Origin: Candidatus Omnitrophota bacterium
GTDB taxonomy: Bacteria > Ratteibacteria > UBA8468 > MWAK01
Direction of reading: 5' to 3'
Length of the DNA: 58,388 nucleotides
Assembly (NCBI GenBank): GCA_043797665.1
Contig: JAZDPL010000027.1
Coordinates: 1 to 58,388, forward strand
The notes under the pieces are model-generated. The model saw only the letters and a program-made list of their open reading frames with translations, was not told where the DNA came from and made no database searches. Below are positions 8,217-32,328 of this stretch, piece after piece (within the stretch, counting starts at the first letter, position 1; every line of letters starts with the position of its first letter). Made by a program: the position numbers and the translations under genes.

Positions 8217-8219
8217 AAC
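8177..8219 (+). repeat. AraC-3'-end direct repeat, copy 1 (within the intact gene)
   Basis: cctccccccc-accacc-gaataccggaaaaaagcccactgaaac, recurring at 25101, 25940, 27348, 28284 and 29167. Confidence 0.9.
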
Positions 8220-8228
8220 TAAGAGGAT

Positions 8229-8283
8229 TTGACTTTTTAACGCTAATGTGTGTTATAATATATGTATATAAACATCTATAACA
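8229..8283 (+). promoter_or_regulatory. Sigma70-type promoter with probable GntR operator
   Basis: TTGACT 8229-8234 and extended -10 TGtTATAAT 8251-8259 (19-nt spacer). Near-palindrome ATGTATATAAACAT and inverted TGTTATA/TATAACA overlap the start region. Confidence 0.6.
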
Positions 8284-8332
8284 AAATTCTTCAAATTAAT
8301 AAGTTATCAATTACAACTACACATTAGTTCAT

Positions 8333-9451: not shown

Positions 9452-9526
9452 GAAAAATGCCTTATTTTTTTATTTCCAGGGTTCTGGAAAGACACATTTT
9501 TTCTCAGTAAAAAGGAGGGAAAGAAA

Positions 9527-10180: not shown

Positions 10181-10239
10181 ATTGTAATAAATAACCGGCA
10201 GAAAAGATTGATGCTCCGGTTTTAAATAAAAGGAGGGAA

Positions 10240-13542: not shown

Positions 13543-13547
13543 TAGAT

Positions 13548-16586: not shown

Positions 16587-16622
16587 ATCAGAACTTAAAT
16601 AGAATGAACATGGGAGGTACAA

Positions 16623-18740
16623 ATGGCCGTTAAGAATCCTGTCATCGCAAAAAATCAAGACCGAATCAAGATAACCTGGTTGGGAAATGTGGAGGTTGAA
16701 TTTCTGCTTAACAAAGATTATATTTTGGGGATGGGTGCCGTGCGGGTAGCAGAAACGCCTCTCCGTTCGGAAAAATTTCCTATCCGCCCGGTAGTATCTA
16801 CGCCAAGCGGGGTGCGTTTCGGTAACTTCCGCCTGGCGAACATAAAAACGGAAAAAGATGAAGTCATCATTTCCGCCATCGTAGAAGGAGAGGACTCAGG
16901 CACGGACGGCCGGTTGGACCAATACGAACAGCCGGTTTTGGTATTTCACGACCAGCCGGTTGATGTCAAAGGGAATATTGAATGGCACTTAAGATACTGC
17001 GATGAGAAAATGGACGGAGAAAGTTTTCTCGGCTTCTCCTACGCCTACCAATTTGCTATTCCAAAAGAACATAAGTTCCATCATCTTCTGGAACTCGGTA
17101 CCTGGGAGTTAGGCGGTACTGCCGAAGGCAGCCTCATCATAAGCCGCGGTCAGTGTTGCCCACCCGAATTCCTTGGTGGCCAAAAGGACTTCTACTCAAC
17201 TGCCATTCTTCATTATCCCTCACGGAGACCTTCCATTCAAAGAGTATGCAGATATGCTGAGATGCAATGTTTTGATTTCCAGTACAGACCCTCAGGGATA
17301 TTCTGGGGTTATTTTGAAAAGCCCGAACATACCTTAAGCTTCATTCAGAAAAACGAAGGCGGAGACGTGTATCACCACTTCAATGATTTCTATTTCCCCT
17401 ACACAAATAAGATAGCGTTACCCCCCTATAAAGTGCTTTATAGTTCTGGCAGCCGCACGCTTACTCAGGCACGAAATGTGTGGACCAGGGCATTTGACAA
17501 GTGTGAAGATAAAGTCAGAAAGTTTTACGGAATTAAACGGGAACCTCCTATTCCCAGTTTCAACGCCACTCAGGATGGCCGCATTAAGGCGGGCAAGGAG
17601 GGTAATCACCAACGATTTTTCCAGGAATTGGCCGACCGCTATCTCCCGGAGTTGGCAAAAAATGGTTTTCGGAATTTCTTTATACCAACCTTCCATTCCG
17701 CAGATTATACAGAAACGCCTACCATCAGGCCGGGACAGGGTGATGTAATTCACGGAAACAACTGTTGCCCATGGGATTATGCCGTGTGCAATTGGTATGG
17801 AGGTAAGAAAGCATTCAGGTATTTCATGAAAAAAGCCAGAGATTATGGTTTAGAAATAATGATTTGGGTGGGAATGGATTTGGGAGCAAACGCACCCATA
17901 CTCAGGGAACATCCGGAATATAAAGTTTTTGGAATTAATTACTGGGATTCGCCGGTTTTTGCCTCGGGAATACGTCCACTGGCAGTATCCTGGGATTTAA
18001 ACAGCGACTGTTACGAATGGCTGTTGGCGCAATTGGGAAAAATCAGGAAAGATTACGGAGTAGATTCTGTTTTCATAGATTCCTTCGGTAATTTTGGAAT
18101 CCTGCCTTTAAACTACAAAGACCCATTATTAAAACCACAGCAGCACGCCGCGGGTAAATTTATCTCCGATTTGCAAAAACGCTGTGGTTATAAACGTATT
18201 GAGACCGAAGCGTGCGGTTCGTTGGGTACACCCCACTTTGGTGTTGGACCCATAAACCCTGTCGCATACCAGACTGCGTTAGAATGGTGGCTCGGAAACG
18301 GCCGGGAAAATTATCTGTATCGCACAGCCCCTACTGTTCGTATCTTGGAATTTGCCCAAATCATGAATGAAGAAGTATATTTCCGCCTGTTGTCAAATAT
18401 GTGCATTCCCGGGATATCCCAAGATGTCCCGGTCGGTAAGATACGCGCCCCAAAATTTCCAAAGTGGCTGAAGAAAAATAACGATTTGTATATGTCAGTG
18501 GTGAAAAATATGGGTAGACGCACCTTGCTTGAAGATGAACGGGGGGTAATCTGGAAAAGCCCCGGTTCTCAAAAACAGGTTTTGTTTTCTTACAAATCTT
18601 TCAAATGTGACCTGGAAAAATCTTGTCGTGTCATAGACATGAGAACCGCCCAAGAGGTTCCTTTGAATGGAAATAAGGCATTTTTTAGAACGAAACCGTT
18701 TGGCGTTTATGTGATTACGCCTGTCAATGCAAAAGACTAA
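16623..18740 (+). CDS. Hypothetical protein, possible glycoside-hydrolase-like TIM barrel
   Basis: 705-aa ORF with RBS GGAGG. GLEIMIW and YGVDSVFIDSFG resemble GH barrel strands. Confidence 0.45.
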   Translation: MAVKNPVIAKNQDRIKITWLGNVEVEFLLNKDYILGMGAVRVAETPLRSEKFPIRPVVSTPSGVRFGNFRLANIKTEKDEVIISAIVEGEDSGTDGRLDQYEQPVLVFHDQPVDVKGNIEWHLRYCDEKMDGESFLGFSYAYQFAIPKEHKFHHLLELGTWELGGTAEGSLIISRGQCCPPEFLGGQKDFYSTAILHYPSRRPSIQRVCRYAEMQCFDFQYRPSGIFWGYFEKPEHTLSFIQKNEGGDVYHHFNDFYFPYTNKIALPPYKVLYSSGSRTLTQARNVWTRAFDKCEDKVRKFYGIKREPPIPSFNATQDGRIKAGKEGNHQRFFQELADRYLPELAKNGFRNFFIPTFHSADYTETPTIRPGQGDVIHGNNCCPWDYAVCNWYGGKKAFRYFMKKARDYGLEIMIWVGMDLGANAPILREHPEYKVFGINYWDSPVFASGIRPLAVSWDLNSDCYEWLLAQLGKIRKDYGVDSVFIDSFGNFGILPLNYKDPLLKPQQHAAGKFISDLQKRCGYKRIETEACGSLGTPHFGVGPINPVAYQTALEWWLGNGRENYLYRTAPTVRILEFAQIMNEEVYFRLLSNMCIPGISQDVPVGKIRAPKFPKWLKKNNDLYMSVVKNMGRRTLLEDERGVIWKSPGSQKQVLFSYKSFKCDLEKSCRVIDMRTAQEVPLNGNKAFFRTKPFGVYVITPVNAKD

Positions 18741-21411
18741 ATCGAAAAAATCAGCAGGAAGTGATTTGTTTCGTAAATTCAACGAACCCGGTCCATTGTC
18801 GCGGCCGGTGCCGTTCTGGTTCCTGGATGGTCAACTGACGCCGGAGGAGAGCGAATCCCAGATTTCGGAGATGAAATCCCAGGGAATACACGCGGCAATT
18901 CCCCTGAAGGCAGGCGGCGGCTTGAAACACCCATACCTGTCCGAATCCTGGTTCCAAGCGTTTGGCGATATCTTCCAGGCTGCTGGCCGGCACCAGTTTC
19001 AGGTCTGGCTTTACGACGAGGGAAACTGCCCAAGCGGCTCGGTGGAAAAACGCCTGGCGCAAAAGCAGGAATTCCAAGCAAAAGCAATCGTATGTGAACC
19101 TCGCTCCGTTTGGGGCACTTCGTCTGTAACGGTTCCGGAAGGCGTTCTTCTTGGGGTCTCCTTCCGCCGGTCCGATGGTACCTGGCGGGAAATCTCCGCC
19201 TGGATACAGCCGGAGGGTCTTGTCATCCCCAGGGGCGAGGAACGACCCGCGGCGGTCTATTTCTTTCTGGCCCGGCCGCATATTCTGGAACCGGGAAACT
19301 TTAACAGCGGAGATGTGGACCGCACCAATCCCAAAACCGTGGAATCATTTTTGAACCTGACACACCGGGAATACGAATGGAGATTCAAGGATAAGTTTGG
19401 TGACACGATCACCGCGGTCTTTACGGATGAACCGGCGATGTTTGAACAACCGGTATATGCTCATAATTTTAGGGAAGAGTTTCGTCGCCGCAAAGGATAC
19501 GATTTTCAGCCCTATCTCCCTTCTTTATTTTTTGATATTGGTCCAATAACTGTCAAAGTCCGCTGCGACTTTTACGACGTCACCTCTTCTCTCTATGCCG
19601 AGAACTTCTTCGGAAAAGCAGCCGAATGGTGCAAAGAACATAACCTGACCTATACCGGACACCTGTGGTCTGAAGAGCATCCCGATGTCATGATGACGCA
19701 TCAGGGGGATTTCTTCCACATCTACCGCTACATGGATTATCCGGGGATAGATTGTATTTCCGGCGGCCGGGCGGAAGTGAGAAAAGAGAATCCCTTAGTG
19801 ATAAAGGCGGCCTCTTCGGCTTCCCACCTTTACGGTAAGAAACGTACTATGTGCGAAGCATTTGCCGGTGTCACGCAGGCATTTTGTTACCAGGAGATGA
19901 AGTGGATGACCGACTGGTTGATGGTCTGCGGAGTAGACCTTATGGTCCCCCACATCATCTACTATACGGTGAGCGATAACTATTGGAATCCAAACATGTT
20001 CTTCCAGAATCCCGGCTGGCCGTATTTTCACCTCTATTCCGATTATGTGGGTAGGGTAAGCGAACTTTTGCAGTCCGGTGTCCACGTATCCGAAGTTGCG
20101 GTCCTCTACCCCCGGGATTCCATCTGGGCCAATACGACCGCTCCGCAGAGCGGGCTTAAAAAACATTATGTACGGGGAGACGGATACGGATATTTTGACA
20201 GCGTGCCGGAGTGCCCGCCGGCAATCGAACCCATCATCGAAGACCTGACTGCGGTCGTGGACGAACTTATTAACGAACAGGTTGACCTTGATTTCATCAG
20301 CGCCGAACTGCTGATTCAAGCCGCGGTTGAGGACGGCCGGTTAAAAATAGGAGATGAGAGCTATTCCACCCTTATTCTTCCCCGCATAACGGTCGAATCT
20401 GTCGAGACGATGCGAAAAATAGAAGAATTTGCCCGGAAAGGCGGCCGGGTGATCGCTTATGGTACGCTTCCCGAATATGCCAGCGACGGGGAAGACAAAA
20501 CCGGCAAACTTAAGGATATCGTGAGCCACCTCTTTTCTCCGGCCGGCAAGGCCGTATTTGTCAGGGATAACTACAGGAAAGTGGTTGAAGCGGTGACATC
20601 CCGGGATTTGGTAATTGACGTGGACTTTGTAAAGACCAGAGACCGTAACATCCATTATCAGCACCGCCGGGCCGGGGAGACAGACATCTACTTTCTGGTG
20701 AACCACTCCAGCCGCCGGGAAAAAGTACAAGCGTCATTCCAGGTTTCCGGTCAGCCTGAACTCTGGAACCCGGAAGACGGTCACGGCTGTCTTCTGACTG
20801 CGGCCCGGCAAGAAAACGGACGAACTGAATTAAAGTTGAACTTTGAGCCGTACCAGGCCTGCTTTATCATATTCCGTAAACAGGCCGATAAGACTCTACC
20901 CGCCTGGACCGAAGAATTCACGCCGATACTCCAGCTGGACGGGGAATGGGATATTGAGTTTCTTCCCAATTCGAGGCACAGGTTCTTGGGCCAGTTCGAC
21001 CGGCTCTTTACATTTCAGAATTATACAGAACCTTTAATGTCGTGGTCGAATTTGGGAATGCCGTGCTTCTCCGGCCGGGTGCGTTACACTAAAAAGTTCC
21101 TCCTGGCGGAAAAGCCCAAAGGAAGCGTGTGCCTTGATTTGGGAACGGTCAAACACAACGCGGAAGTCACGCTAAACGGAAAACCTCTCGGCGCACGGGT
21201 CTGGAAACCTTACCGTTTCAATGCCGGTGACGCCCTGCAGCCCGGTAAAAATCTTCTGGAGGTGGTTGTATCAAACACGCTGGCAAACCTCTTCTCTCAC
21301 CCGGGAATCAAAAAGCCCATAGGTTACGAATCTGCTTCCGGGTTCGTCACCGCAGAACGGCTCCAGTCAGGACTGCTGGGGCCGGTCAGATTATATGCTG
21401 CGAGATTGTGA
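18727..21411 (+). CDS. GH106-like (alpha-L-rhamnosidase-like) glycoside hydrolase
   Basis: Motifs RPVPFWF, WLYDEGNCPSG, FTDEP, GHLWSEE, PGIDCI, MCEAF, C-terminal SGLLGPV. Confidence 0.75.
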   Translation: MQKTKSKKSAGSDLFRKFNEPGPLSRPVPFWFLDGQLTPEESESQISEMKSQGIHAAIPLKAGGGLKHPYLSESWFQAFGDIFQAAGRHQFQVWLYDEGNCPSGSVEKRLAQKQEFQAKAIVCEPRSVWGTSSVTVPEGVLLGVSFRRSDGTWREISAWIQPEGLVIPRGEERPAAVYFFLARPHILEPGNFNSGDVDRTNPKTVESFLNLTHREYEWRFKDKFGDTITAVFTDEPAMFEQPVYAHNFREEFRRRKGYDFQPYLPSLFFDIGPITVKVRCDFYDVTSSLYAENFFGKAAEWCKEHNLTYTGHLWSEEHPDVMMTHQGDFFHIYRYMDYPGIDCISGGRAEVRKENPLVIKAASSASHLYGKKRTMCEAFAGVTQAFCYQEMKWMTDWLMVCGVDLMVPHIIYYTVSDNYWNPNMFFQNPGWPYFHLYSDYVGRVSELLQSGVHVSEVAVLYPRDSIWANTTAPQSGLKKHYVRGDGYGYFDSVPECPPAIEPIIEDLTAVVDELINEQVDLDFISAELLIQAAVEDGRLKIGDESYSTLILPRITVESVETMRKIEEFARKGGRVIAYGTLPEYASDGEDKTGKLKDIVSHLFSPAGKAVFVRDNYRKVVEAVTSRDLVIDVDFVKTRDRNIHYQHRRAGETDIYFLVNHSSRREKVQASFQVSGQPELWNPEDGHGCLLTAARQENGRTELKLNFEPYQACFIIFRKQADKTLPAWTEEFTPILQLDGEWDIEFLPNSRHRFLGQFDRLFTFQNYTEPLMSWSNLGMPCFSGRVRYTKKFLLAEKPKGSVCLDLGTVKHNAEVTLNGKPLGARVWKPYRFNAGDALQPGKNLLEVVVSNTLANLFSHPGIKKPIGYESASGFVTAERLQSGLLGPVRLYAARL

Positions 21412-21433
21412 AAAAACATCAACCGCGTCTTGA
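21402..21433 (+). repeat. 32-bp exact direct repeat, copy A
   Basis: gagattgtgaaaaaacatcaaccgcgtcttga is identical to 22376-22407 (from codon 8 of the URO-D gene). It contains the stop of 18727-21411. Confidence 0.9.
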
Positions 21434-21540
21434 GGAAAGACACCTTTTTTCTTTCTCAGCCCTGTGATATAGAAGCGGTAAATGATAAATAGTGAATTGT
21501 GAATAGTGAATGTTTAACAATGTAAAAAGGAGGCAAAAAA

Positions 21541-22203
21541 ATGGCACGGATAAAGAAAGCGGTACGGAAAGCATTGGGATTCGCTCTGATTGAACTGCTG
21601 GTGGTCATCGTTATAATCTCACTTTTGGCGGCGATGCTATTGCCGGCACTCAGCCAGGCAAGAGGGAAAACCACACAGGAGGTCTGCGTTGACAACCTGA
21701 AACAAATAGGGCAGGCTTTCGCGATGTACCTTCAGGATTACGACGGTTGGGTTTTTCCCGTGGCCGATAACACCTTTTGGTTCCAAAAGTTATGTCCGGT
21801 CTATGCGTCAAATGTAAAGACGTTTGAATGTCCCAGTTCGCTGAGTGAGCGTCCTGACAGAAAACAGACGCCTCCCAATCTTAACACTCAAATAGGTTAC
21901 GGATATGACGGCAATGACTTGGCCCGGGGGGGCGCTTGGGGATGGATGAAGATGGGACAGATTAAAAAACCATCTAATACCGGGGTTATCATGGATTCCT
22001 TTGGTAATAGCGTAGATGTGATCGGTGGATATACAGGGGCAAATTCCTACACCGTTTCCCCTGATGGTATGGCGTACCAACTTCCTTCCGGCCGGCATAA
22101 TGACGGAGCCAACGTGCTCTTCTTTGACTGGCACGTGGCGTGGTACTTGACAAGTTACATTGAGTCTCAAAATCATGCCGGAGAAATGTGGGATAGATTG
22201 TAA
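21541..22203 (+). CDS. Prepilin-type DUF1559-like protein, copy 2 (near-identical paralogue of 9527-10180)
   Basis: Long identical nucleotide stretches with copy 1, including flanks. N-terminus ALGFALIELLVV. Confidence 0.88.
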   Translation: MARIKKAVRKALGFALIELLVVIVIISLLAAMLLPALSQARGKTTQEVCVDNLKQIGQAFAMYLQDYDGWVFPVADNTFWFQKLCPVYASNVKTFECPSSLSERPDRKQTPPNLNTQIGYGYDGNDLARGGAWGWMKMGQIKKPSNTGVIMDSFGNSVDVIGGYTGANSYTVSPDGMAYQLPSGRHNDGANVLFFDWHVAWYLTSYIESQNHAGEMWDRL

Positions 22204-22354
22204 TAAATAACCCGCAGAAAAGATTGAGGCGCCGGCTTTAGCGATAAGATACCCCCGGCGGCACCCATCGGTTTCTTGGCCGTTAATGATGCTGAGGGTA
22301 TCTTTAATTCTATAAGCCAATGATTTTCTGAACGCTTCCATATCTTATAAGATT

Positions 22355-23467
22355 ATGTCTGCTATTAATGTACCTGAGATTGTGAAAAAACATCAACCGC
22401 GTCTTGAAGAACGCAGAAAACGGCTTGAAAAATTCTGGTCAGGCGGAGATATCGGACGACCCCCCATTTCTTTTATCCCGGGGAATTTATCACCCAGGCA
22501 GATTTATGACGACGAAACAAAACAACTAGATTGTATGGCAAAATATTTTCAAGCAGTTTTGGCGTTTCCCGGAGATACCATACCCATTTTCTGGCCGGAC
22601 ATGGGAACTGTTTCTCTTGCTTCCACATTTGGCGGGACAATTATCAGAGAAGGGACCGGAGAAAAACAATGGATAAAACCGGTTTTATCCTCCCTGGAAG
22701 AAGTTGTATATCTTGAACCATCTAAACCAATAAGCAATCTGGTAAAAAAGGAATTTGACCGATGCTGCCGGTGGCGTGACATAACGAAAGGGCTTTCATG
22801 CGTTGCGCCACCGGATATGCAAGGGCCGGTAAATATTGCATGTATGCTGATAGACACATCGGAATTACTTGTCGGCATGTATACCTGTCCGGAACTGGTC
22901 CACCGTCTACTTCGTACCTGCACAGACCTGATTCTTAAGGTGTTGGAATCCTACAAAATTGAGTTTGGCAAAGCCTTTGCTCCCATAACATGGCCCTTGG
23001 TTTGGTTTCCTTGTGGATACGGTTTGACGCTTACGCAGGATTCAATACCTTTTCTTTCGCCTAACCTATACCGGGAATTCGAACTTCCTTATGTGCAGGA
23101 AATATCAAGAGCGATGGGCGGGGTTTATATGCATTGCTGCGGTAGATTGGAACACGTTCTCGGCGAAGTAAAGAAAGTAGATAACCTTAGGGGTATTGAC
23201 CACGCCTACCCGGAGTCTCATCTTGAGAAAATCTTGCAGAACCTGGGTAACCATATCACCGTTACCTCCAATATAGCGAGCCGAGGTGAAAAAGATTTTT
23301 CCACCTACGACCTTTATGTCCAATATCTGTTGCCCCGCCTACCAAAAGGAACCAGAATGTGGCATATTCTACCGGCTGACCAACCGGAAATTACGATAAA
23401 AACCTTGAATATACTTGGACTTTCTGAAGTTTGCGAAGAATACCAAGCCGCATTGAAGGTAAGATGA
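22355..23467 (+). CDS. Uroporphyrinogen decarboxylase / MtaA-CmuA-like family protein
   Basis: Motifs PDMQGP, LSPNLYREFELPY, MHCCG. Confidence 0.7.
   Translation: MSAINVPEIVKKHQPRLEERRKRLEKFWSGGDIGRPPISFIPGNLSPRQIYDDETKQLDCMAKYFQAVLAFPGDTIPIFWPDMGTVSLASTFGGTIIREGTGEKQWIKPVLSSLEEVVYLEPSKPISNLVKKEFDRCCRWRDITKGLSCVAPPDMQGPVNIACMLIDTSELLVGMYTCPELVHRLLRTCTDLILKVLESYKIEFGKAFAPITWPLVWFPCGYGLTLTQDSIPFLSPNLYREFELPYVQEISRAMGGVYMHCCGRLEHVLGEVKKVDNLRGIDHAYPESHLEKILQNLGNHITVTSNIASRGEKDFSTYDLYVQYLLPRLPKGTRMWHILPADQPEITIKTLNILGLSEVCEEYQAALKVR
22376..22407 (+). repeat. 32-bp exact direct repeat, copy B
   Basis: Identical to 21402-21433. Confidence 0.9.
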
Positions 23468-24546
23468 ACAACCGGGAAAGATTTATGAAAACAATGCATT
23501 ATGAAAAGGTTGATCATCCGCCTTTTTATCCAGATTCGCCATGGGAGGAGACAAAGGAAAGGTGGTATAGGGAAGGTTACCCTCAAAATGTGAGCTTAGA
23601 CGATTTTTTGGAGACAGAACGTTTGAATCCTAAATTGCTCCCCATTGATACCTGGTTAATTCCATCTTTTAAAACTAAGGTCGTATCCGAAGATGAAAAA
23701 GAGGTTATCAGGATTAACCAGTATGGTGCAACCATTAAAACCTTTAAGAATTCCCCCCATCAGTCACAGTGGCTTGATTATGTCGTCAAAACCGAATCAG
23801 ACTTACTGGGTCTCGTTGACCGGTTAAAGCCTGACATGGAAAAGAGAATTCCGAAGAATTGGGAGAAAACCAAGAAGACCTGGGCGGAGGATCCAAATTC
23901 GGTTACCATGGCGTGGGGCGGCAGTTATTTTGATAGTCTGAGAAATCTTATGGGACTGGAGAGATTGTGCCTAATGTTTTATGACTCGCCGGGTGCGATT
24001 AAAAAATTCTTGGATGCATATCATAATATTGTTATGGCCGTTTTGGAAACGACTCTTGGTGAAGTCCGGATTGACTGCATTCAGTTCGCTGAAGACTTTG
24101 CCTATAAGACCTCATTATTACTTTCTCCGGATATGTATCAGGAATTTATTCTGCCCAAACATAAGACCTTAACCGACTTTGCGCGAAAACGGGGTGTTGA
24201 CATTTTCTATTTCGACAGCGACGGAAATCTTGACAGAATACTTCCTTATTTACTTAAAGGCGGCATTAATCTCATTTTCCCAGTCGAGTGTGCGGCCGGC
24301 ATGGATCCTTTGGTGCTGCGAAAAAAGTACGGGAGAACTCTCCGGATGATCGGAGGCATCGATAAAATGAAAATCGCTAAAGGGAAGGAATCTATTGAGC
24401 AGGAACTCAACAAAAAAATTCCGCCGCTTATTAGAGAGGGCGGATATATACCCTGCATCGACCATTCGGTATCTTCGGATATTTCACTGGAAAACTTCGT
24501 TTACTACGTAGATTTGTTAAAGAAAATTTACGGCGTGCATAAATAG
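23464..24546 (+). CDS. Uroporphyrinogen decarboxylase family protein
   Basis: MNNRERF start with ATGA overlap. Motifs RNLMGLE, EDFAYK, LSPDMYQEF, DSDGN, GGIDK, GGYIPCIDH. Confidence 0.8.
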   Translation: MNNRERFMKTMHYEKVDHPPFYPDSPWEETKERWYREGYPQNVSLDDFLETERLNPKLLPIDTWLIPSFKTKVVSEDEKEVIRINQYGATIKTFKNSPHQSQWLDYVVKTESDLLGLVDRLKPDMEKRIPKNWEKTKKTWAEDPNSVTMAWGGSYFDSLRNLMGLERLCLMFYDSPGAIKKFLDAYHNIVMAVLETTLGEVRIDCIQFAEDFAYKTSLLLSPDMYQEFILPKHKTLTDFARKRGVDIFYFDSDGNLDRILPYLLKGGINLIFPVECAAGMDPLVLRKKYGRTLRMIGGIDKMKIAKGKESIEQELNKKIPPLIREGGYIPCIDHSVSSDISLENFVYYVDLLKKIYGVHK

Positions 24547-24728
24547 ATGGTTGTAGGAAAGATTGAAAACTCCGGTGATATTATCGGGGAAGAGGGGTAA
24601 AGGGGAGGCTTTATGAGAGGTGAAAAAATGAGTACTCGGTTGAAGAATCCTTTAGAATTTGAGATTTCCGAATGTAAGTTCGTGCATTAAAATGGTCACT
24701 GTGTTTGTCAAGTAGACATCTTTTCGAA

Positions 24729-25081
24729 TTGCCTCCGCGCTGATAAAGTTCAAGGACGGCAAAACCATACATTTCGAAACGACCTGGGAATCGCATATTA
24801 AAAAGGAGGATTTTTCCATTTCCATCCTGGGAACCAAAGCCGGTGCAGAAACTTCGCCGCTAAGAACCTACCAGAAAGAAGGCGGCATCCCCACCGAAAC
24901 CGTGTATAACCTTCCACCCGGCGAAGCACCTGCGGTCCGGACCAGTATCGGCCATTTTGTTGAGTGCGTTACCAAAAGAAAGGAGCCGATTACCTCTCCG
25001 GAAGAAGGACTGCGGGTGATGCGCATCCTGGACGCCATTTATCGTTCCAGCCGGACCGGCAAGGAAGTGCGCCTTAAATAA
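24729..25081 (+). pseudogene. 5'-truncated duplicate of the Gfo/Idh/MocA gene 3' end
   Basis: Gap-free match to 6969-7321 (offset 17760) with 14 mismatches in 353 bp by manual count. No start codon; ends at the homologous TAA. Confidence 0.9.
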
Positions 25082-25133
25082 ATCTACACCAGGGTGATAT
25101 CCACCGGATACCGAAAAAAAGCCTACTGAAACC
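25081..25133 (+). pseudogene. Collapsed AraC remnant: 21-bp internal fragment fused to the 3'-end repeat (copy 2)
   Basis: aatctacaccagggtgatatc equals 7506-7526 and runs straight into caccggataccgaaaaaaagcctactgaaacc. Confidence 0.8.
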
Positions 25134-25232
25134 CATCTTCTACAGTTGAATTTTAAAAAACCTATTTCTCAATCTACCTCCGCCTTCTGGAAGGCACCAG
25201 GGCATGGGCCCGGTCTGGTAAGCTAAAAACAC

Positions 25233-25262
25233 TTGACGGAATTTTAAAGATAGTGGTATGCT
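25233..25262 (+). promoter_or_regulatory. Sigma70-type promoter of the DUF2281/PIN module
   Basis: TTGACG, 18-nt spacer, TATGCT with TG extension. Confidence 0.65.
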
Positions 25263-25283
25263 ATTCTTGCGGAGGAAAAAGAT

Positions 25284-25487
25284 ATGCAAACAATAGAAGA
25301 AATGGTGAAACGGTTACCCCCAGAATTTCAGGTGGAAGTGGCTAATTTTGTAGAATTTTTGCTGAAAAAGAGGCAACCAACGCAAAAAAACCTGCGTTTA
25401 ACCTGGGCCGGTGGTCTCCAGGAATTTCGGGGGAAGTTTACCTCTTTACAATTGCAGAAAAAGGCGGTGGAGTGGTGGGGCGATTGA
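25284..25487 (+). CDS. DUF2281-like putative antitoxin
   Basis: LPPEFQVEVANFVEFLLKK...WAGGL. RBS GGAGG. Abuts the PIN gene. Confidence 0.75.
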   Translation: MQTIEEMVKRLPPEFQVEVANFVEFLLKKRQPTQKNLRLTWAGGLQEFRGKFTSLQLQKKAVEWWGD

Positions 25488-25907
25488 ATGTATCTTGTTG
25501 ATACTAATGTCTGGCTGGAATTACTACTGAACCAGGAGAGAGCAGAAGAGGTGCGGTCTTTTTTCAAAATGGGTGATGCCTCTCTTTTAGCCATCACAGA
25601 ATTTTCTCTCTATTCCATTGCAGTCATTCTAACCCAACTTAAAAAGGATGCCCTCTTCCAAAATTTTCTCACAGACACCCTTTTGGACTCTGGAGTTATG
25701 CGTATCTGTCTGCAGATTGAAGACTTTAGTGATATCATTGAGTTTCGTCAGCACTTTTTCCTTGATTTTGATGATGCCTACCAATACGTTGCTTCCCAGA
25801 AACACAATTTTTCCTTGGTAAGTTTTGACAGTGATTTTGACCGCACCCCCCGTGGTCGGAAAACCCCAGCCGAAATTCTTGCAGATAAAAACCCGCTGGC
25901 TTTCTAA
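25488..25907 (+). CDS. PIN-domain (VapC-like) ribonuclease toxin
   Basis: Acidic PIN motifs YLVDTNVWLE, LDFDDAYQY, LVSFDSDFD. Confidence 0.88.
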   Translation: MYLVDTNVWLELLLNQERAEEVRSFFKMGDASLLAITEFSLYSIAVILTQLKKDALFQNFLTDTLLDSGVMRICLQIEDFSDIIEFRQHFFLDFDDAYQYVASQKHNFSLVSFDSDFDRTPRGRKTPAEILADKNPLAF

Positions 25908-25939
25908 AGATAGAAATTTTACTCTTCCTCGTCTCTTTT

Positions 25940-25974
25940 CCCCCACCGAATACCGAAAAAAACCCATTGAAACC
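25940..25974 (+). repeat. AraC-3'-end direct repeat, copy 3
   Basis: cccccaccgaataccgaaaaaaacccattgaaacc. Confidence 0.9.
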
Positions 25975-25979
25975 AAGGC

Positions 25980-26008
25980 TTGACTTTAACAAACAATAAC
26001 ATTATAAT
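25980..26008 (+). promoter_or_regulatory. Sigma70-type promoter of the ATPase gene (probably leaderless)
   Basis: TTGACT, 17-nt spacer, TATAAT. ATG 26017 lies 8 nt after the -10 with no SD. Confidence 0.8.
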
Positions 26009-26016
26009 GTAATTGT

Positions 26017-27318
26017 ATGTTAAATTTAATGACATTCAACCGCTGGTGGGATACCGGACGGGTTGAGCCAATCTATCTCAAACCTTACAAAAGGCCCTTA
26101 TTTTTTGAACTAATAAAATTCTTAGACACCAGACAGATTCTTTTAATCTATGGCCTGAGACGAGTAGGAAAAACAACCTTAATGTACCAGTTGATAGATT
26201 TTCTTTTGGAAAAAGGGACGGAAAAGAAAATAATTCTTTACTTCTCTTTTGATGAAAGAATCTCTTCTTTAGAGGAACTCTTTAGGACCTATGTAGAACT
26301 TGTGCTGGGAAAGGACATCTTAAAAGAAAACCGAGTCTATGTCTTCTTGGACGAAATCCAAAAATTACCCGATTGGCAAAATCAGTTAAAACTCTTTTAT
26401 GACCTATATCCCAACGTAAAATTTGTCGTCTCTGGTTCAGCCAGTCTCATAATAGCCAAAGGAACTAACGAAACACTGGCGGGAAGGGTGTACGAATTTA
26501 TCTTGTCCCTTCTGAACTTTCCTGAGTATCTAAGTCTGGTTGGTCCAAATGTCCCGCCGTTTCACGACATCTTTGATTTTTCAACTCTTAAGGAAATTTA
26601 CCTGAAGAGAGACAGTCTCTCCCCTTTTTTCTTTTCTTATCTTAAAAAGGGAGGGTTTATTGAAATCGCTACCGAGGAAGATGATTTAAAGATTAAAGAA
26701 TACGCAAAGTCTATTCTGGATAAGATGGTCTTTGGAGATATTCCCTTAAGTTTCAGTTTGAGAGAACCACAGGTTTTGAAAACAATCGTAGAACTTGTCG
26801 CTTCAAACCCTGGCTTTCTCCTTGATTATTCAAAACTGGCGGAAACTTTAAATAAGGACCAGCGAGTAGTTGCCAACTATATCTTTTATCTCAAATATTC
26901 GCTACTGGTAAAACTTCTTTATAACTTTTCTCCGTCCAAATTTGTCAGCGAAAGAAAACTTAAAAAAATCTACCTTATTTCCACAAACTTTATCTACCAA
27001 CTTTTCTCTGAAAGGTTTAGTAATCCGGACTTTGTCGGCAAAATCGTTGAGAACTTGGTGGTTACTTCTTCTCAGAGTACATTCTTCTGGCGGGAACGCC
27101 AGGCAGAGGTAGACCTGGTCATGTCCGAGACAATCCCTTTAGAAATTAAGTATAAAAATACCTTAGATAAAGACGATGTAAATGGGATTTTAAGGTTTGC
27201 TGACCGGTTTAAATCACGAAAAGCTATCATCCTAACCAAAGAAATACTGAAGGAAGATAAAATTGAAGGTCTGCCCGTCTATTTTATACCGGTGTGGCTT
27301 TACCTTCTGAAAACTTAA
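26017..27318 (+). CDS. AAA+ superfamily ATP-binding protein (AAA_14 / DUF4143 type)
   Basis: Walker A GLRRVGKT, Walker B FLDEIQ, VSGSAS, LAGR. C-terminal EVDLV...PLEIK (PD-(D/E)xK-like). Confidence 0.85.
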   Translation: MLNLMTFNRWWDTGRVEPIYLKPYKRPLFFELIKFLDTRQILLIYGLRRVGKTTLMYQLIDFLLEKGTEKKIILYFSFDERISSLEELFRTYVELVLGKDILKENRVYVFLDEIQKLPDWQNQLKLFYDLYPNVKFVVSGSASLIIAKGTNETLAGRVYEFILSLLNFPEYLSLVGPNVPPFHDIFDFSTLKEIYLKRDSLSPFFFSYLKKGGFIEIATEEDDLKIKEYAKSILDKMVFGDIPLSFSLREPQVLKTIVELVASNPGFLLDYSKLAETLNKDQRVVANYIFYLKYSLLVKLLYNFSPSKFVSERKLKKIYLISTNFIYQLFSERFSNPDFVGKIVENLVVTSSQSTFFWRERQAEVDLVMSETIPLEIKYKNTLDKDDVNGILRFADRFKSRKAIILTKEILKEDKIEGLPVYFIPVWLYLLKT

Positions 27319-27347
27319 TCAGTCTTAAAAAAAGCGGGTCCCGCCGG

Positions 27348-27383
27348 CCCCCACCGGATACCGAAAAAAAGCACACGGAAACC
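27348..27383 (+). repeat. AraC-3'-end direct repeat, copy 4
   Basis: cccccaccggataccgaaaaaaagcacacggaaacc. Confidence 0.88.
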
Positions 27384-27393
27384 AAAATTTAGT

Positions 27394-27423
27394 TTGCTTA
27401 AAAAAGGCAAGAAGTGGTATACT
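27394..27423 (+). promoter_or_regulatory. Sigma70-type promoter of the MNT/HEPN module
   Basis: TTGCTT, 18-nt spacer, TATACT with TG extension. Confidence 0.6.
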
Positions 27424-27462
27424 TGACGAAGATTGGGTTGGAAGTGAACGTTGAGGTATGAT

Positions 27463-27858
27463 ATGCAGTTTGAAGGGATAACAAAGATTGCACAAGACTT
27501 CAGTCTTTCTGCAGTAATTTTATTCGGTTCGCGTCTCCCCGAGAAAACGAGGTTTAAAAATGATTATGACTTCGCGGTTCTTATTCCGACTCAAAAATTG
27601 GAAGTGGATAAGGAATTATCTCTTATTTGCAAATTCTCGCAACTTTTAAAAACAGATAATTTTGATTTAGTAGTATTAAACTTTGCTTCCCCTCTTCTTC
27701 AATATGAAGTTGCCCGGGGAGGCAAGGTGATTTACGAAAGAAAACCAGGGCTGTTTAATAGATTCAGATGGCATGCTATCCAAAGGTGGAACGATAACAA
27801 AAAATTTCACGCATTAAAAACAAAATACATTAACGAGTATTTAAAAGGAAATGGTTGA
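27463..27858 (+). CDS. Minimal nucleotidyltransferase antitoxin (MntA-like)
   Basis: GS-X10-DXD motif (GSRLPEKTRFKNDYD) and DLVVLN..SPLL. GAGGT precedes ATG 27463. Confidence 0.8.
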   Translation: MQFEGITKIAQDFSLSAVILFGSRLPEKTRFKNDYDFAVLIPTQKLEVDKELSLICKFSQLLKTDNFDLVVLNFASPLLQYEVARGGKVIYERKPGLFNRFRWHAIQRWNDNKKFHALKTKYINEYLKGNG

Positions 27859-28282
27859 AATAAAAATAATAAAAGATAAATTGGCTAAGATTGTTCAGTT
27901 TTTGAAGGAGTTAGAAAAAGTAAAGCCAAAAGGAACGTTGCACGAATATGTTTCCAATCCGGCGATAAGACGTTCCTGCGAAAGATTAATTCAACTTATC
28001 GTCGAAAGCGCTGCTGATATTAATACCCAGGCAATTATTGGTTCAGACGAGACACCTCCTGAGGATTACTACGATACCTTTATTAAAGCAGAGGGCGTTG
28101 GATTCATCTCCCCCACACTTGCCAAAAGGTTAGCGCCCTGGGCAGGGTTACGGAATAGGATCGTTCACGAATACCAGGACATCAAGGATAAATTAGTTTT
28201 TGAGAAAATAGAACCCACCCTCCAGAACTTTTCAGAATACGTCCGCGAAGCACAACATTTCATTGAGAAATCGGAGTCTTGA
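27851..28282 (+). CDS. HEPN-domain toxin (HepT/DUF86-like)
   Basis: R-X4-H-X-Y motif (RNRIVHEY). Overlaps the MNT gene. Confidence 0.88.
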   Translation: MVEIKIIKDKLAKIVQFLKELEKVKPKGTLHEYVSNPAIRRSCERLIQLIVESAADINTQAIIGSDETPPEDYYDTFIKAEGVGFISPTLAKRLAPWAGLRNRIVHEYQDIKDKLVFEKIEPTLQNFSEYVREAQHFIEKSES

Positions 28283-28283
28283 A

Positions 28284-28304
28284 GAAAAAAAGCCCACTGA
28301 AACC
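28284..28304 (+). repeat. AraC-3'-end direct repeat, copy 5 (3' half only)
   Basis: gaaaaaaagcccactgaaacc. Confidence 0.8.
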
Positions 28305-28326
28305 GTTGGAGGGATGCAGAGGAAAG

Positions 28327-28554
28327 TCAATTTAAACGGTATTGCCTTGGACCAAGAATTTCAATCTTCCCTTCCCGTTGCCATCTTTCCCAGCGTACTT
28401 TAGTCATAAGGAAAAGAACCTCCTGGTCTTTTCTTTTCCGTGGTCTTCCGCCAATTTTTCTCTGCTTTTTTTCGGAAGAAGTTAATCGGAGCCGAATTTC
28501 AGCAAATTTGGCTAAGTTTTTCCGGTAATAGTTATCAAAATCAATCCTGCGCAT
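28327..28554 (-). CDS. Small basic hypothetical protein, partner of the nucleotidyltransferase
   Basis: 75-aa ORF starting 2 nt after the upstream stop. AAGGAG SD lies in the upstream gene end. Confidence 0.6.
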   Translation of the reverse strand: MRRIDFDNYYRKNLAKFAEIRLRLTSSEKKQRKIGGRPRKRKDQEVLFLMTKVRWERWQREGKIEILGPRQYRLN

Positions 28555-28556
28555 CT

Positions 28557-29129
28557 TTACTCCTTCCGGACACGGTCCTTAAATCTTTTCAGCGCTTTCA
28601 AAGTCTTTTCTTGTAAAGACCGGTTTTCTAAATACGACCAGTCAATTTCTGAAGCATGAATCTTCATCAACTGTTCAACCAACTCCCCATCTTTAGTTGA
28701 TTTCCAATAAACATAAGCATTAAGCCGGTCTATTATCAAATCCTCAATGCCAATCAAATAGACGATCAAGTCTTCTATTTTTACTTCCACAATTTTAGAC
28801 TCATTATCGCCGGCCAACGAAGCCGCCGGTATTTCGATTTCCAGGTCAATCTCGGGTAAGAACCAATGTCTTCCTACTTTCCGGAATCCCCAAGATTTCA
28901 ACAACTTATCGATGATTTCGTAACCGGGCGAAGCTAAATCAACATCACTGGTGGCATAAGTGCCTAACGTATAAAATTCTACCGCATTTCCTCCTACTAT
29001 AATGGGCCTGATTCCTCTATTTTTTAAGTATTTAGTCAGGATGCCGACAAAATATAAGCGCTGCTTAAAAGGAGGCGTGATGTTAAAGAGCCGTTTGAAT
29101 TCCAAAGGCTTAACCGAATTTTTACTCAT
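28557..29129 (-). CDS. Nucleotidyltransferase-fold protein
   Basis: IIVGGNAVEFY...ATSDVDL (GG...DxD) and EDLIIDRL. Start placed at MSKN because a promoter lies directly upstream. Confidence 0.72.
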   Translation of the reverse strand: MSKNSVKPLEFKRLFNITPPFKQRLYFVGILTKYLKNRGIRPIIVGGNAVEFYTLGTYATSDVDLASPGYEIIDKLLKSWGFRKVGRHWFLPEIDLEIEIPAASLAGDNESKIVEVKIEDLIVYLIGIEDLIIDRLNAYVYWKSTKDGELVEQLMKIHASEIDWSYLENRSLQEKTLKALKRFKDRVRKE

Positions 29130-29136
29130 CAAAAAA

Positions 29137-29166
29137 ATTATAGCATGATACAGCCAAGGAAGACAA
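29137..29166 (-). promoter_or_regulatory. Sigma70-type promoter of the inverted nucleotidyltransferase module
   Basis: Minus strand TTGTCT, 18-nt spacer, TATAAT with TG extension. ATG is 7 nt downstream and the -35 abuts repeat copy 6. Confidence 0.7.
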
Positions 29167-29207
29167 CCTCCCCCCCACCGAATACCGGAAAAAAGCACAC
29201 TGAAACC
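29167..29207 (+). repeat. AraC-3'-end direct repeat, copy 6
   Basis: cctcccccccaccgaataccggaaaaaagcacactgaaacc, which translates LPPTEYRKKAH*. Confidence 0.92.
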
Positions 29208-29286: not shown

Positions 29287-32200
29287 GTGGAACGGGAAGA
29301 ATTGATTGGAGGATTTAAGGAACCGGGGCCGGAGTACCGGAGCGCACCTTTCTGGTCCTGGAACGAAAAGATGAAACCGGCAGAAGTATGCCGGCAATTG
29401 GATTTGATGAAACAGGGCGGATACGGCGGCGGATTTATGCACAGCCGGGTCGGCTTGATTACACCTTATTTAGGCAAGGAGTGGATGAAGGCGATAAAGG
29501 CTGGCATTGATTATGCAAAAAAGAATAACCTCCTGGCATACCTCTACGATGAAGACCGCTGGCCCTCGGGTTTTGCCGGAGGGCTGACGACCAAAAAGAA
29601 AGAGTGTCAGTCACAGATTCTGGCAGCAAGAAAAGTTAAGAAGAGGAATACTCCGTCTGCTAACGCAGACACCCCTTTACAAAAGGGGAAGTGGTCATTT
29701 AAGGTGGAGACTGCACCGGCAACCGAGTGGTTTAATAACACCCCTTATCTCAATACTTTAAAAAAAGAGGCGGTGGCTGAATTTCTCAGAAATACCTATG
29801 ACGTTTACGCTAAAGAAGCAGGCAAGGAATTCGGTAAGAGCGTACCGGCCATCTTTACCGATGAACCAAACTATATTTGCTGCTGGGGCGGGGGTACAAA
29901 AAGGGTTGAAACATTTTTCCTCCCTTACACCGACGAACTCCCGTCTCTCTTCCGGAAAGAGTACGGCTACGAAATAGAACCAAACTATGTTTCTCTCTTT
30001 GAAAAATCCGGCAACTGGAAAAAGGTGCGTCATCATTACTGGCGCTTGGTGGCGAAACTCTTTCAGGAAAACTTCGGCAGGCAGATATACGACTGGTGTG
30101 AAGAACACCATATCGCCTTAGCCGGTCACTATCTGGCGGAAGACAACCTGGAATCACAGACTTCGGTTATCGGCGCGGCAATGCCCCTTTACGAATATAT
30201 GCAGATTCCGGGCGTTGACCATCTCTGTAATAATATTCGCGACCTTCTCACCCTAAAACAGTGTTCCTCTGCGGCGCACCAGTTAGGCAAAAACAGGGTT
30301 CTCTCGGAACTGTACGGCTGCAGCGGTCAGAATATGACCTTTCTGGACCGGAAATGGATTGGCGACTGGCACTTTGCCTTAGGAATTAACCTTTTCTGTC
30401 CCCACCTGTGGCTTTACTCTATGGCGGGCTGCCGAAAACGTGACTACCCGCCTACCCTCTCCTACCAGCAGCCCTACTGGCTTGACAATAAACCCCTGGA
30501 AGACTACTTCAGCCGGACCGCTTACCTCCTTTCCCGGGGTAAATTTGTGGCGGATATTCTGGTGTTACATCCGATAGAAAGCGGTTTCATGCTCTTTGAA
30601 CCAGGAAAACCCTGCCGCCAGAACAAAGAAATCTGGCAGATGAACGACTCTTTCGTCTCTTTGTTGGAAGAACTACTGGCTAACCACTTTGAGTTTGACT
30701 TAGGAGACGAGACGCTCCTTGCCAGACATGGCAAATCTTCTGAAGAACGCTTAACCGTAGGCCAGATGACTTATCGGGTAGTGGTACTCCCGGAGATGTT
30801 AACCATCCGCCGGACGACCTTTGACCTTCTTCTGAAATTCATCAATGCCGGCGGAAAAGTGTACGCCTTAAAAACTCTTCCGGAATTAATAGAAGGCGAA
30901 AAAGACGAAACGGCGCTGAAAACCTTGAGAGAAAAAATCAGGGTTGTACCGGACATCACCAACCTCCTTTCGGAATTAGAGAAGGCTTTGCCGGAGAGAA
31001 TCAGCGTAAAGGATGGCGAAGTAGAAGCCAAAAACATATACCTTTATCGCAAACGGATTTCTGACAAGGAAGAGGTTATCTTTTTAGCGAACACCAGTAA
31101 GAAGGATGGTTGCCAGGTGACTTTATCTTTGCCCCAGGCCGGTCTTCTGGAAAAATGTGATGGTTTTACGGGAAAGATTTCACCCGTGGAAGTTGAAAAA
31201 GACGGGAAAGGAATTAAAAAATCCCTGGATTTACCACCCGGCGGTAGTTCCTTATTGATGTTCCATCCGGATAAAGAACCGGTTTGGGCAGGGATAAAAA
31301 AGACGGAAGAAATACTAATCGCGGAAAGTTCTACCCGGGATTGGCAGGCGATGCCTCTTAATCCAAACAGTCTGACTCTGGATAATTGTGCCTATCGCCT
31401 GGGCAGACAAAAGTGGCAAAAGGCAATACCGGTTATAAAACTCCAGGGAATGCTGGAAAAAAATACCCCGTCTGCTAACGCAGACACCCCTTTACAAAAG
31501 GGGAATAAGAATAAGGCGATGCCGGTCAGTCTGCGGTTTACCTTTAAAACAGAACTCAAAGAAAAACCGAAAGACTGTTACCTTATTCTGGAGCGTCCGG
31601 AACAGTTCCGGATAACGATAAACGGGAAAAATGTTAAAAATAAAGACCTTGGCTTCTGGGTTGATACGGCGTTCCGGAAAATTGATATCAAGAACCTGCT
31701 CCGATTAGAAGGCGAAAATGTAATTGAACTGAAGACAAAGTTCAAACCTCCTAAAAAACCCAAAACACTTATCTTCCGGGAAGGCGGTACCGAGTTAGAG
31801 TCTATCTACCTGATGGGTGATTTTGGAGTTAAAGGACAGTTCTGCTCGGTAAGCGACGGGTTCTGGGCAAAAGGGTTCGTTATCACTTCCAAAACCGGGG
31901 CTGCACCGGTCAGCCTTATTGATAACGGTTATCCGTTTTACGCGGGCAGACTCCGTTATTCGGGGGCGATAAGGTGTAGTGCGACCATTTCAGGGTCGCC
32001 AGCAAATGGCTCCAGGTTCTTTTTAGAATTGGTTAAACCTTCAGCGATTACCCACCGGATAAAAATCAACGGAAAGGAGGCCGGCTTAATTTTATTACCG
32101 CCTTACCGGATAGAGGTAACCGGCTTATTAAAGGAAGGCGGAAACAGAATTGAAATTGAAGCCGCTACTTCCCTGCGCAATCTTTTGGGCCCGCATCACC

Positions 32201-32328
32201 ACAAGTTAGGAGAGGCACCGGATGGGGTAGGTCCAGGAAGTTTCTTAGTCCCTGAGCATTGGTCTGACGACTACCACTTAGTTCCCCTGGGGCTGAAGGG
32301 AATCAGGATCTATCTGGGTAAGATGTAG
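29287..32328 (+). CDS. GH106-like glycoside hydrolase
   Basis: Motifs RSAPFWSWN, FMHSRVGL, YLYDEDRWPSGFAGG, IFTDEP, PGVDHL, SELYG, RKRDYPP, RNLLGPHH. GGAGG precedes GTG. Confidence 0.8.
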   Translation: MEREELIGGFKEPGPEYRSAPFWSWNEKMKPAEVCRQLDLMKQGGYGGGFMHSRVGLITPYLGKEWMKAIKAGIDYAKKNNLLAYLYDEDRWPSGFAGGLTTKKKECQSQILAARKVKKRNTPSANADTPLQKGKWSFKVETAPATEWFNNTPYLNTLKKEAVAEFLRNTYDVYAKEAGKEFGKSVPAIFTDEPNYICCWGGGTKRVETFFLPYTDELPSLFRKEYGYEIEPNYVSLFEKSGNWKKVRHHYWRLVAKLFQENFGRQIYDWCEEHHIALAGHYLAEDNLESQTSVIGAAMPLYEYMQIPGVDHLCNNIRDLLTLKQCSSAAHQLGKNRVLSELYGCSGQNMTFLDRKWIGDWHFALGINLFCPHLWLYSMAGCRKRDYPPTLSYQQPYWLDNKPLEDYFSRTAYLLSRGKFVADILVLHPIESGFMLFEPGKPCRQNKEIWQMNDSFVSLLEELLANHFEFDLGDETLLARHGKSSEERLTVGQMTYRVVVLPEMLTIRRTTFDLLLKFINAGGKVYALKTLPELIEGEKDETALKTLREKIRVVPDITNLLSELEKALPERISVKDGEVEAKNIYLYRKRISDKEEVIFLANTSKKDGCQVTLSLPQAGLLEKCDGFTGKISPVEVEKDGKGIKKSLDLPPGGSSLLMFHPDKEPVWAGIKKTEEILIAESSTRDWQAMPLNPNSLTLDNCAYRLGRQKWQKAIPVIKLQGMLEKNTPSANADTPLQKGNKNKAMPVSLRFTFKTELKEKPKDCYLILERPEQFRITINGKNVKNKDLGFWVDTAFRKIDIKNLLRLEGENVIELKTKFKPPKKPKTLIFREGGTELESIYLMGDFGVKGQFCSVSDGFWAKGFVITSKTGAAPVSLIDNGYPFYAGRLRYSGAIRCSATISGSPANGSRFFLELVKPSAITHRIKINGKEAGLILLPPYRIEVTGLLKEGGNRIEIEAATSLRNLLGPHHHKLGEAPDGVGPGSFLVPEHWSDDYHLVPLGLKGIRIYLGKM
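29647..29690 (+). repeat. 44-bp intragenic double-hairpin repeat, copy 1 (encodes NTPSANADTPLQKG)
   Basis: 43/44 identical to 31462-31505. Hairpins GTCTGC-TAAC-GCAGAC and CCCCTTT-ACA-AAAGGGG. Confidence 0.9.
31462..31505 (+). repeat. 44-bp intragenic double-hairpin repeat, copy 2
   Basis: aataccccgtctgctaacgcagacacccctttacaaaaggggaa, giving the same peptide in frame. Confidence 0.9.

Follow-up and report, generated by a model that had tools for sequence, protein, structure and literature searches.

The stretch of DNA analyzed here (hereafter, the window: 58,388 nt, positions 1–58,388 of the forward strand of contig JAZDPL010000027.1, assembly GCA_043797665.1) originates from a Candidatus Omnitrophota bacterium and carries an array of four compact toxin–antitoxin (TA) or defense-type modules, each delimited by a copy of the end of an AraC-family regulator gene. 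The array is real, modular, and reshuffled, yet it does not amount to a cassette system with a dedicated site of its own; we regard it as an example of a lineage-wide, mostly integrase-free addition of compact modules after gene ends. With moderate confidence, we attribute it to homology-anchored additive insertion, in which incoming DNA swaps in its own gene tail, the displaced copy erodes, and the remaining stumps seed later insertions and reshuffling.

The window genome (G000) is represented by a 2.69-Mb assembly of 93 contigs, being 86% complete. A profile search of the contigs recovered the six repeat copies proposed in an earlier first-pass annotation of this DNA, with right ends at 8219, 25132, 25973, 27382, 28303, and 29206 and spacings between successive ends of 16913, 841, 1409, 921, and 903 bp. 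Scored with a 21-nt profile derived from the six copies themselves, they reached 29.0–35.5 bits, as opposed to 19.8 bits for the next-best site in the assembly and 18.0 bits for the best match in a reversed-genome control; within G000, the repeat is confined to the window locus rather than scattered over the genome. It corresponds to the coding end of the AraC gene (7335..8216, + strand; Pfam, translation compared with paralogues), as had been assumed. However, the terminus PTEYRKKAH previously ascribed to the gene reflects the spacing of the distal copies: AraC itself ends in PPTTEYRKKAH with an extra ACC codon, whereas all four distal copies long enough to show the position have the single-T spacing of the paralogues, among them one on contig C6. 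Likewise, the copy length of approximately 35 bp holds only in part, since the right end is constant and sharp (3 nt beyond the AraC stop codon), but the left end is ragged, and lengths range from 20 to 41 nt.

All six copies lie on the + strand. The proximal one (8180..8219) is the current AraC end and is followed by a −35-like box 9 nt further on; such a box starts 6–13 nt past four of the six copies. Downstream of it are R0 (25101..25132, 32 nt), R1 (25940..25973, one base short), R2 (27348..27382, its resemblance to R4 extending to 27392), R3 (28284..28303, truncated to approximately 20 nt), and R4 (29166..29206, 41 nt), which is nearest to AraC by self-comparison. The extra codon in the present AraC end, absent from the distal copies and the C6 paralogue, suggests that the present tail came with an insert and that the older tail lies downstream. 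AraC's own present tail would accordingly be the derived version, as judged by comparison with the paralogues, and R4 presumably the original chromosomal end.

Each short interval between the copies holds exactly one module, as the first-pass annotation had described. Module 1 (25133..25939, + strand) comprises a promoter-like site (25233–25262), a DUF2281 gene (25284–25487), and a PIN gene (25488–25907). Module 2 (25974..27347, + strand) consists of a promoter-like site (25980–26008, 11/12) and an AAA_14/DUF4143 ATPase gene (26017–27318), a PDC-S01 candidate according to PADLOC. Module 3 (27383..28283, + strand) encodes MntA (27451–27858) and HepT (27851–28282), adjacent genes predicted to form a type VII TA pair from scores of 73.5 and 90 bits, respectively, versus NCBIfam equivalog cut-offs of 60. 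Module 4 is inverted (28304..29165, − strand), with a promoter-like site (29166–29137), a DUF6036-like nucleotidyltransferase gene (29132–28557), and a basic 75-aa open reading frame (ORF; 28554–28327). A small ORF resembling the latter is located 3′ of the nucleotidyltransferase homologue in most of 19 genomes, the two genes representing an unnamed candidate pair. Module ends are tight, running from promoter (promoter-like sites were found in three modules by consensus scan) to stop codon, and the GC content of the modules is 0.37–0.42 versus 0.48 in the flanks. Pfam and NCBIfam scans detected no integration or transfer genes among the seven module ORFs. The locus thus stands as a hotspot of serial compact-module addition at a protein-gene terminus, with no local integrase in a Pfam scan of the 39 window ORFs. 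An imperfect palindrome of 40 nt (25985–26024) spans the promoter and start codon of module 2, and a similar stretch precedes its homologue in relative G008. The right arm presumably resembles the XerD arm of dif, with the spacing off by one, and the palindrome is probably an operator or due to chance. G000 also carries 17 DUF4143 ATPases, 15 MNT genes, and many DUF1559-type pilin-like genes.

What the first-pass annotation overlooked is that R0 is not a stand-alone, att-like copy. It closes a collapsed duplicate of the oxidoreductase–AraC region (24729..25101, + strand; self-BLAST), in which the 3′ part of the Gfo/Idh/MocA oxidoreductase gene (6326..7321, + strand; Pfam) is fused to a piece of the AraC interior: positions 6969–7326 recur at 24729–25086 (358 bp, 96%) and positions 7506–7526 at 25081–25101 (21 nt), with two internal deletions whose junctions overlap by 3 nt and 1 nt. 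Taken together with the tail, these parts indicate that R0 began as a duplicate of at least 1.25 kb around a 16.5-kb sugar-utilization block (8220..24728, + strand; Pfam: GntR/LacI regulator, two DUF1559-type pilin-like genes, GH35, GH106, and two URO-D-like genes). Given its position between the two oxidoreductase–AraC copies, this block would be the most recent, proximal insert.

Variation of the array was evident in a related population. Two runs (X1 and X2), which covered a small share of the region, were compared with the window at 80% likeness. An X2 contig of 3610 nt (record 6, depth 13.7) leads from module 4 (28284–29171) into module 3 (27348–28273), then through AAACCTT and the repeat (29172–29225) into the orthologue of the GH106-like gene downstream of the array (29287..32328, + strand; Pfam, sequence comparison); modules 1 and 2 are absent from it. 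A joint of the same depth (25075 to 28284), assigned to record 6 from depth and record coordinates, places the oxidoreductase end approximately 60 nt before module 4. As its identity to the window is approximately 94% over the modules and 88% over GH106, the contig represents a related population, not the window strain. The 4–3 order without modules 1 and 2 demonstrates that the array is modular, and since the half-repeats flanking each module in the window are also kept in this contig, the crossovers fell inside the repeats. HepT lacks its last codons there (28273–28283) and, as deduced, would read in frame into the repeat and stop at the AraC stop codon.

The earlier expectation that cassette number and order vary between fixed flanks therefore applies to the cassettes and to GH106, which also has an orthologue in relative G001 (86%) and in X1 (approximately 88%), but not to AraC. 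The X2 contig passes from the oxidoreductase end to the repeat in approximately 60 nt, and no AraC orthologue was found among 60 relatives; a homologue search at E 1e-40 returned the query alone and missed even a 49% paralogue in G000, so its sensitivity was limited. Oxidoreductase homologues in the relatives (54–65%) lie in other contexts. Upstream of the GH106 orthologue, X1 and G001 possess other DNA, G001 featuring a different gene and no repeat.

The modules themselves were found elsewhere without the repeat. Module 1 occurs in G008 (92%), beginning at the same −35 box; the module 2 homologue of G008 (66%) sits between two cell-wall genes, and module 4 was detected at an unrelated place in G011 (73%). 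The repeat profile had no match in 11 relative regions holding module homologues, and only 1 of 19 module-4 homologues across phyla, a figure that concerns homologues outside the class, is bracketed by any repeat. The AraC-tail repeat is not part of the modules. Together with the bracketing of one and the same module by different host duplicates (see below) and the origin of R0 as the stump of a much larger duplicate, this speaks against the cassette-acquisition system specific to this repeat that had been envisaged. A metagenome pattern scan yielded at least 119 loci among the matches listed, none with two copies and none like window positions 5–33 kb; as these matches are at chance level, the scan provides no evidence of absence. 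The exact repeat pattern was absent from the viral collection searched and the array from the plasmid collection searched.

The same scar was identified at other genes. In G000, 58 genes were classed as TA-like from matches to six TA-type Pfam families. Of these, 16 lie between locus-specific direct repeats, as opposed to 29 of the 1720 control ORFs (odds ratio 22); the fraction is 13/55 without the window loci and 11/43 when neighbors are merged. Duplicated tails were detected for metG (107 bp), glmS (59 bp, around a 13-kb sugar block), ychF (63 bp), xerD (59 bp), comM (arrays on contigs C37 and C83), and tRNA-Thr (three copies), some clear gene-end cases originating from a wider scan beyond the 16 bracketed hits. 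Gene starts or promoters are duplicated on contigs C60, C78, C83, and C50, and the duplicates at unrelated targets range from 27 to 360 bp. Among the relatives, 12 of 35 HepT or DUF4160 loci (the best HepT hit per genome, i.e., 29 of 84 matches outside G000, and all six DUF4160 loci, many near contig ends) are bracketed, in comparison with none of 30 guanylate-kinase loci. The difference remains significant at 10/35, without the two hairpin-repeat composites among the 12. The suggestion that further TA loci would be flanked by copies of their neighbor's end has thus been borne out both in G000 and in related genomes. Targets in the relatives include comM, a Gfo/Idh/MocA-like gene, a URO-D-like gene, tRNA-Ser-like 5′ parts, and a gene that we take, from its sequence, to be comF-like. 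In G028, an intact comM is followed by a TA pair and a 65-bp tail of 100% identity, G030 showing the same layout with 45 bp; overall, a duplicated tail was seen at only 3 of 30 comM loci, up to 1.5 kb having been examined at each.

Two further loci deserve mention. In G000, stacked repeats belonging to two families, up to 13 per stack, separate TA-like and other small genes near tRNA-Asn (contig C61, 62000–81999, locus L170; contig C44, locus L173); these repeats look like recombinase-end or att remnants. In G023 (contig C79, locus L298), a TA pair lies between two copies of a gene start in a CRISPR-Cas operon, the gene being presumably Cas8-like according to its sequence.

Filled and empty sites were compared to deduce the direction of the events. 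The empty metG site, with a single tail running into the next gene, is present in G001 and four other relatives, and glmS of G001 is followed by the sequence found after the distal copy in G000. Conversely, contig C86 of G000 represents the empty form of a site filled in G001 (contig C14), where the module is 90% identical to one that G000 carries at a different gene, accompanied by a different duplicate. Likewise, the tRNA-Thr array of G000 and the URO-D-like gene of G008 have a HepT module in common (92%). Since the duplicates accompanying the same module differ from site to site, the repeat comes from the landing site. At the URO-D-like gene of G008, the displaced copy consists of the gene start joined to the gene end, i.e., a whole-gene duplicate collapsed by deletion; with a similar gene-sized duplicate at xerD on contig C79 of G000 and that in the window, three such cases are known.

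Regarding the question of which copy is the newcomer, 10 of 13 informative sites (metG, glmS, and the G001 gene; p 0.046 versus even odds) place the outgroup on the side of the distal copy, the 3′ tail of the G008 URO-D-like gene and AraC itself having been left out for lack of a usable outgroup. Copying of the target predicts the opposite bias; the tail was thus most likely carried in by the incoming DNA. The comM copies vary mostly at third codon positions (6/3/16, p 0.002), as separate functional alleles would. Differences between host gene and copy pooled by codon position (10/7/24) reject neutral decay (p 0.001) but not a model of selection on the host copy (p 0.09) and, for this reason, were not used as support.

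From these results, the following course of events is proposed. DNA of a related lineage, carrying the host gene and, right after its stop codon, a promoter-bearing module, would pair with the resident gene. One crossover could join the donor if it is a circle, or a linear donor if its far end is rejoined in the gene tail (homology-facilitated illegitimate recombination); the donor tail would complete the gene, and the resident tail would be pushed behind the module. The redundant copy, up to gene size, would then shrink through deletions until a stump directly before the next promoter remains, as seen in the three collapsed duplicates. Stumps of 20–40 nt may subsequently offer short homology, both to further additions and to crossovers by which modules are lost or change their order, an outcome observed in the X2 contig, so that the array grows. 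Finally, addiction or defense value may keep TA modules from popping out, leading to their over-representation. A dedicated recombinase would be unnecessary, the likely machinery being RecA and the DNA-uptake genes, as G000 contains a RecA motif, ComEC, and DprA. Both the attraction of later insertions by stumps and the retention of TA modules through addiction are inferences on our part. The addiction step is tempered by Photorhabdus, for which a recent study reports that the surroundings of TA modules are not conserved over the long term (PMC13617665).

Homology is favored for AraC, metG, xerD, and the like by the number of unrelated targets, by the raggedness of the repeats, and by duplicates of gene size. 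Of the two mechanisms originally put forward, trans-acting or homology-driven insertion, the latter fits better and the former less so. Nevertheless, a donor-brought tail is compatible with classical attP integration as well as with a single homology-driven crossover. For the AraC array, the main rival is the decay of site-specific elements, resembling the tandem accretion of cis-mobilizable elements (CIMEs): integrase-encoding elements would have hit the AraC tail serially and kept an att core and a TA module, an integrase acting in trans reordering them. This scenario, which we consider rather improbable for the window, predicts the same geometry, with the incoming tail proximal and the old tail distal, and the stumps of 32–41 nt fall within the 8–60 bp range of direct repeats of integrative and mobilizable elements (PMC5704250). 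Moreover, G000 contains six tyrosine-recombinase matches and one large serine recombinase, and comM fragments start at a fixed position. However, the Pfam scan of the 39 window ORFs revealed neither a recombinase gene nor a remnant, the left ends of the copies are ragged, the first stump ends a duplicate of at least 1.25 kb, and well over ten targets would each need their own integrase. Neither the repeat pattern in viruses nor the array in plasmids was encountered in the collections mentioned above. No site-specific element with an integrase for the AraC tail was found, but neither was a close AraC orthologue.

Several observations weigh against homology-driven addition. At least the comM arrays, and probably those at tRNA genes, have the appearance of classical site-specific elements: the 3′ fragments of comM in G000 and G013 begin near one position (residues 342–347), and the large serine recombinase adjoins the comM array on contig C37. 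The two routes thus probably lead to the same outcome. The G000 assembly, 86% complete, yielded comM only as 3′ fragments and no intact copy. Most AraC stumps measure 32–41 nt, as a fixed att core would also yield, and the AraC copies differ 4/1/3 by codon position, giving no signal of coding constraint. No intermediate, be it a circle or a donor molecule, was seen. The outgroup test comprises 13 sites from three 3′-tail loci, and the gene-start cases (3:2 and 3:2) and the xerD 3′ end (1:1) display no outgroup bias. Reordering is known from one contig of one run. Furthermore, duplicates were absent from the flanks of 42 of the 58 TA-like genes in G000, and the 16 brackets include several made up of 26-bp pairs, paralogous cassette ends, or recombinase-end remnants instead of host-gene ends. 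The enrichment was calculated against all ORFs of at least 150 aa, not against recently acquired non-TA genes, and may consequently reflect recent gain instead of addiction.

An undescribed host-encoded activity that places promoter-plus-TA units beside genes, with long, variable target duplications and no donor homology, appears unlikely. IS1634/IS1549-type transposases are known to generate target duplications of this kind, and the different duplicates accompanying one module, the 100% identity of the 65-bp duplicate in G028, and the tight module ends are all in line with it. The functional copy should then be nearer to the outgroup, but the 10 of 13 sites mentioned above show the reverse, and the third-position pattern of comM fits separate functional alleles. 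The IS1634 profile remained below its cut-off, and no terminal inverted repeats were found in 23 of 24 inserts (the remaining one, at p ≤0.01, is none of the four window modules); a terminal-repeat transposon was likewise considered and rejected.

It is still more improbable that the stumps are kept as promoter-upstream or other regulatory elements with no role in recombination. The −35-like boxes shortly after four copies would suit this function, and the A-tract could serve as an UP-like (upstream promoter) element, but modules of the relatives lack the repeat, which encodes the AraC C-terminal motif, one copy sits before the 3′ end of an inverted module, and the X2 joints lie in the repeats. 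An assembly artefact, suggested by the single metagenome-type assembly for which no reads of the window strain were found, can practically be dismissed: any two short copies share at most 22 exact nt, too few to scramble an assembly from k-mers of at least 31, the independent X2 contig has modules 3 and 4 with repeats beside the GH106 orthologue, and the layout recurs in other genomes.

The affiliation of the repeat to known site types was also checked. Integron attC sites are imperfect palindromes that fold into a bottom-strand hairpin with RYYYAAC/GTTRRRY ends. For the repeat, folding of 12 strands gave z values from +1.4 to −2.6, one below −2, with no common hairpin, and its bottom strand begins with GTTTCAG or similar, not GTTRRRY. 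The integron integrase profile TIGR02249 matched in none of the 65 class genomes above the cut-off of 265; the best match in G000, whose assembly is 86% complete, was a XerD stretch with 85.5 bits (whole XerD, 155 bits). An attC/integron site was therefore rejected, in agreement with the first-pass annotation. A dif/pdif site was considered and rejected as well, and so was a CRISPR array, given gene-bearing intervals of 800–1400 nt versus spacers of 20–50 nt; the GAAAC end is a coincidence of the stop-codon region. Rfam gave no match in window positions 5000–33000.

Additional features were noted around the array. Within the sugar block, a 36-bp piece of a URO-D-like gene start has a second copy where the upstream GH106-type gene ends (21402–21437 and 22376–22411); the duplicates bracket the second DUF1559-type gene (21541–22203), itself 89% like 9507–10224, and probably represent a further insertion scar. 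The downstream GH106-like gene contains a 44-nt element twice (29647–29690, in frame; 31462–31505), the first copy being absent from the X2 contig and the second from both runs; copies occur in G001 and other relatives. Hairpin repeats of the GTAG type, resembling repetitive extragenic palindromic (REP) sequences, are located at 1930–1984, 32324–32382, 32686–32740, and 36226–36280, and on approximately 63 contigs. Large ORFs without a Pfam match in sugar-utilization blocks span 10240–13542 (1100 aa), 16623–18740 (705 aa), and 50511–52544 (677 aa).

Among recombinase-free mobile units bounded by direct repeats, unconventional circularizable structures are single and do not form arrays. Integrons and clusters of attC sites lacking integrases (CALINs) resemble the array in their compact, TA-rich one-module cassettes with own promoters and an order differing between populations, whereas here no integron integrase above the cut-off and no attC hairpin were found, and the tail of a host gene serves as spacer. 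CIMEs have their origin in site-specific elements with fixed att sites, and their tandem accretion shares two features of the layout, including units without integration or transfer genes (PMC5704250). However, the units of the window are 0.8–1.4 kb in size, the repeats are ragged, many unrelated genes of one lineage are targeted, and a helper integrase for the AraC site was not detected; in contrast to fixed attL/attR boundaries, left ends leave copies of 20–41 nt and one copy stems from a duplicate of at least 1.25 kb, although later erosion could blur a fixed boundary. Type VI secretion system (T6SS) clusters and rhs loci of Vibrio likewise grow as integrase-free arrays that move older modules downstream, homology-facilitated illegitimate recombination anchored in the upstream gene having been proposed (PMC5361080); their cargo consists of effector–immunity modules replacing the effector, whereas TA/defense operons and sugar blocks are added here and a duplicated tail is left.

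Cassettes also pile up at one site in the additive flexible genomic islands of Alteromonas, where a direct repeat of the target 3′ end closes the insert, but the targets are tRNA genes and the cassettes are tens of kb long (PMC4119200). The H47 island of E. coli has no recombinase of its own and is bounded by short direct repeats, but it is a single island, not an array, and its excision is RecA-independent (PMC5426353). In Photorhabdus, solo TA modules cluster in small spots of high turnover, in many cases with no mobility genes. A duplicated site flanks one of them and is empty in a relative, but it is a 24-bp palindrome like Tn3 res and not a gene tail (PMC13617665). In the open literature, subscription papers being mostly not covered, no paper was found on TA modules with duplicated protein-gene tails across a lineage, nor on the lineage-wide scale and the array-building feedback.

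The arrays offer footprints that can be read base by base, comprising filled and empty sites, a swapped tail, collapsing duplicates, and two cassette orders, and a duplicated gene end provides a simple search key for recently gained compact defense and TA candidates. Tentatively, and with less confidence than for the window array itself, a class-wide, integrase-free mode of gene gain may be envisaged, in which any gene end can turn into a self-reinforcing cassette array, integron-like, through host recombination alone. If plain RecA recombination is responsible, the mechanism itself is not new. The arrival of chromosomal TA and small defense modules without mobility genes is described as poorly characterized in a 2026 paper (PMC13617665); an integrase-free route of array growth, if true, would account for the spread of solo TA modules lacking mobility genes.

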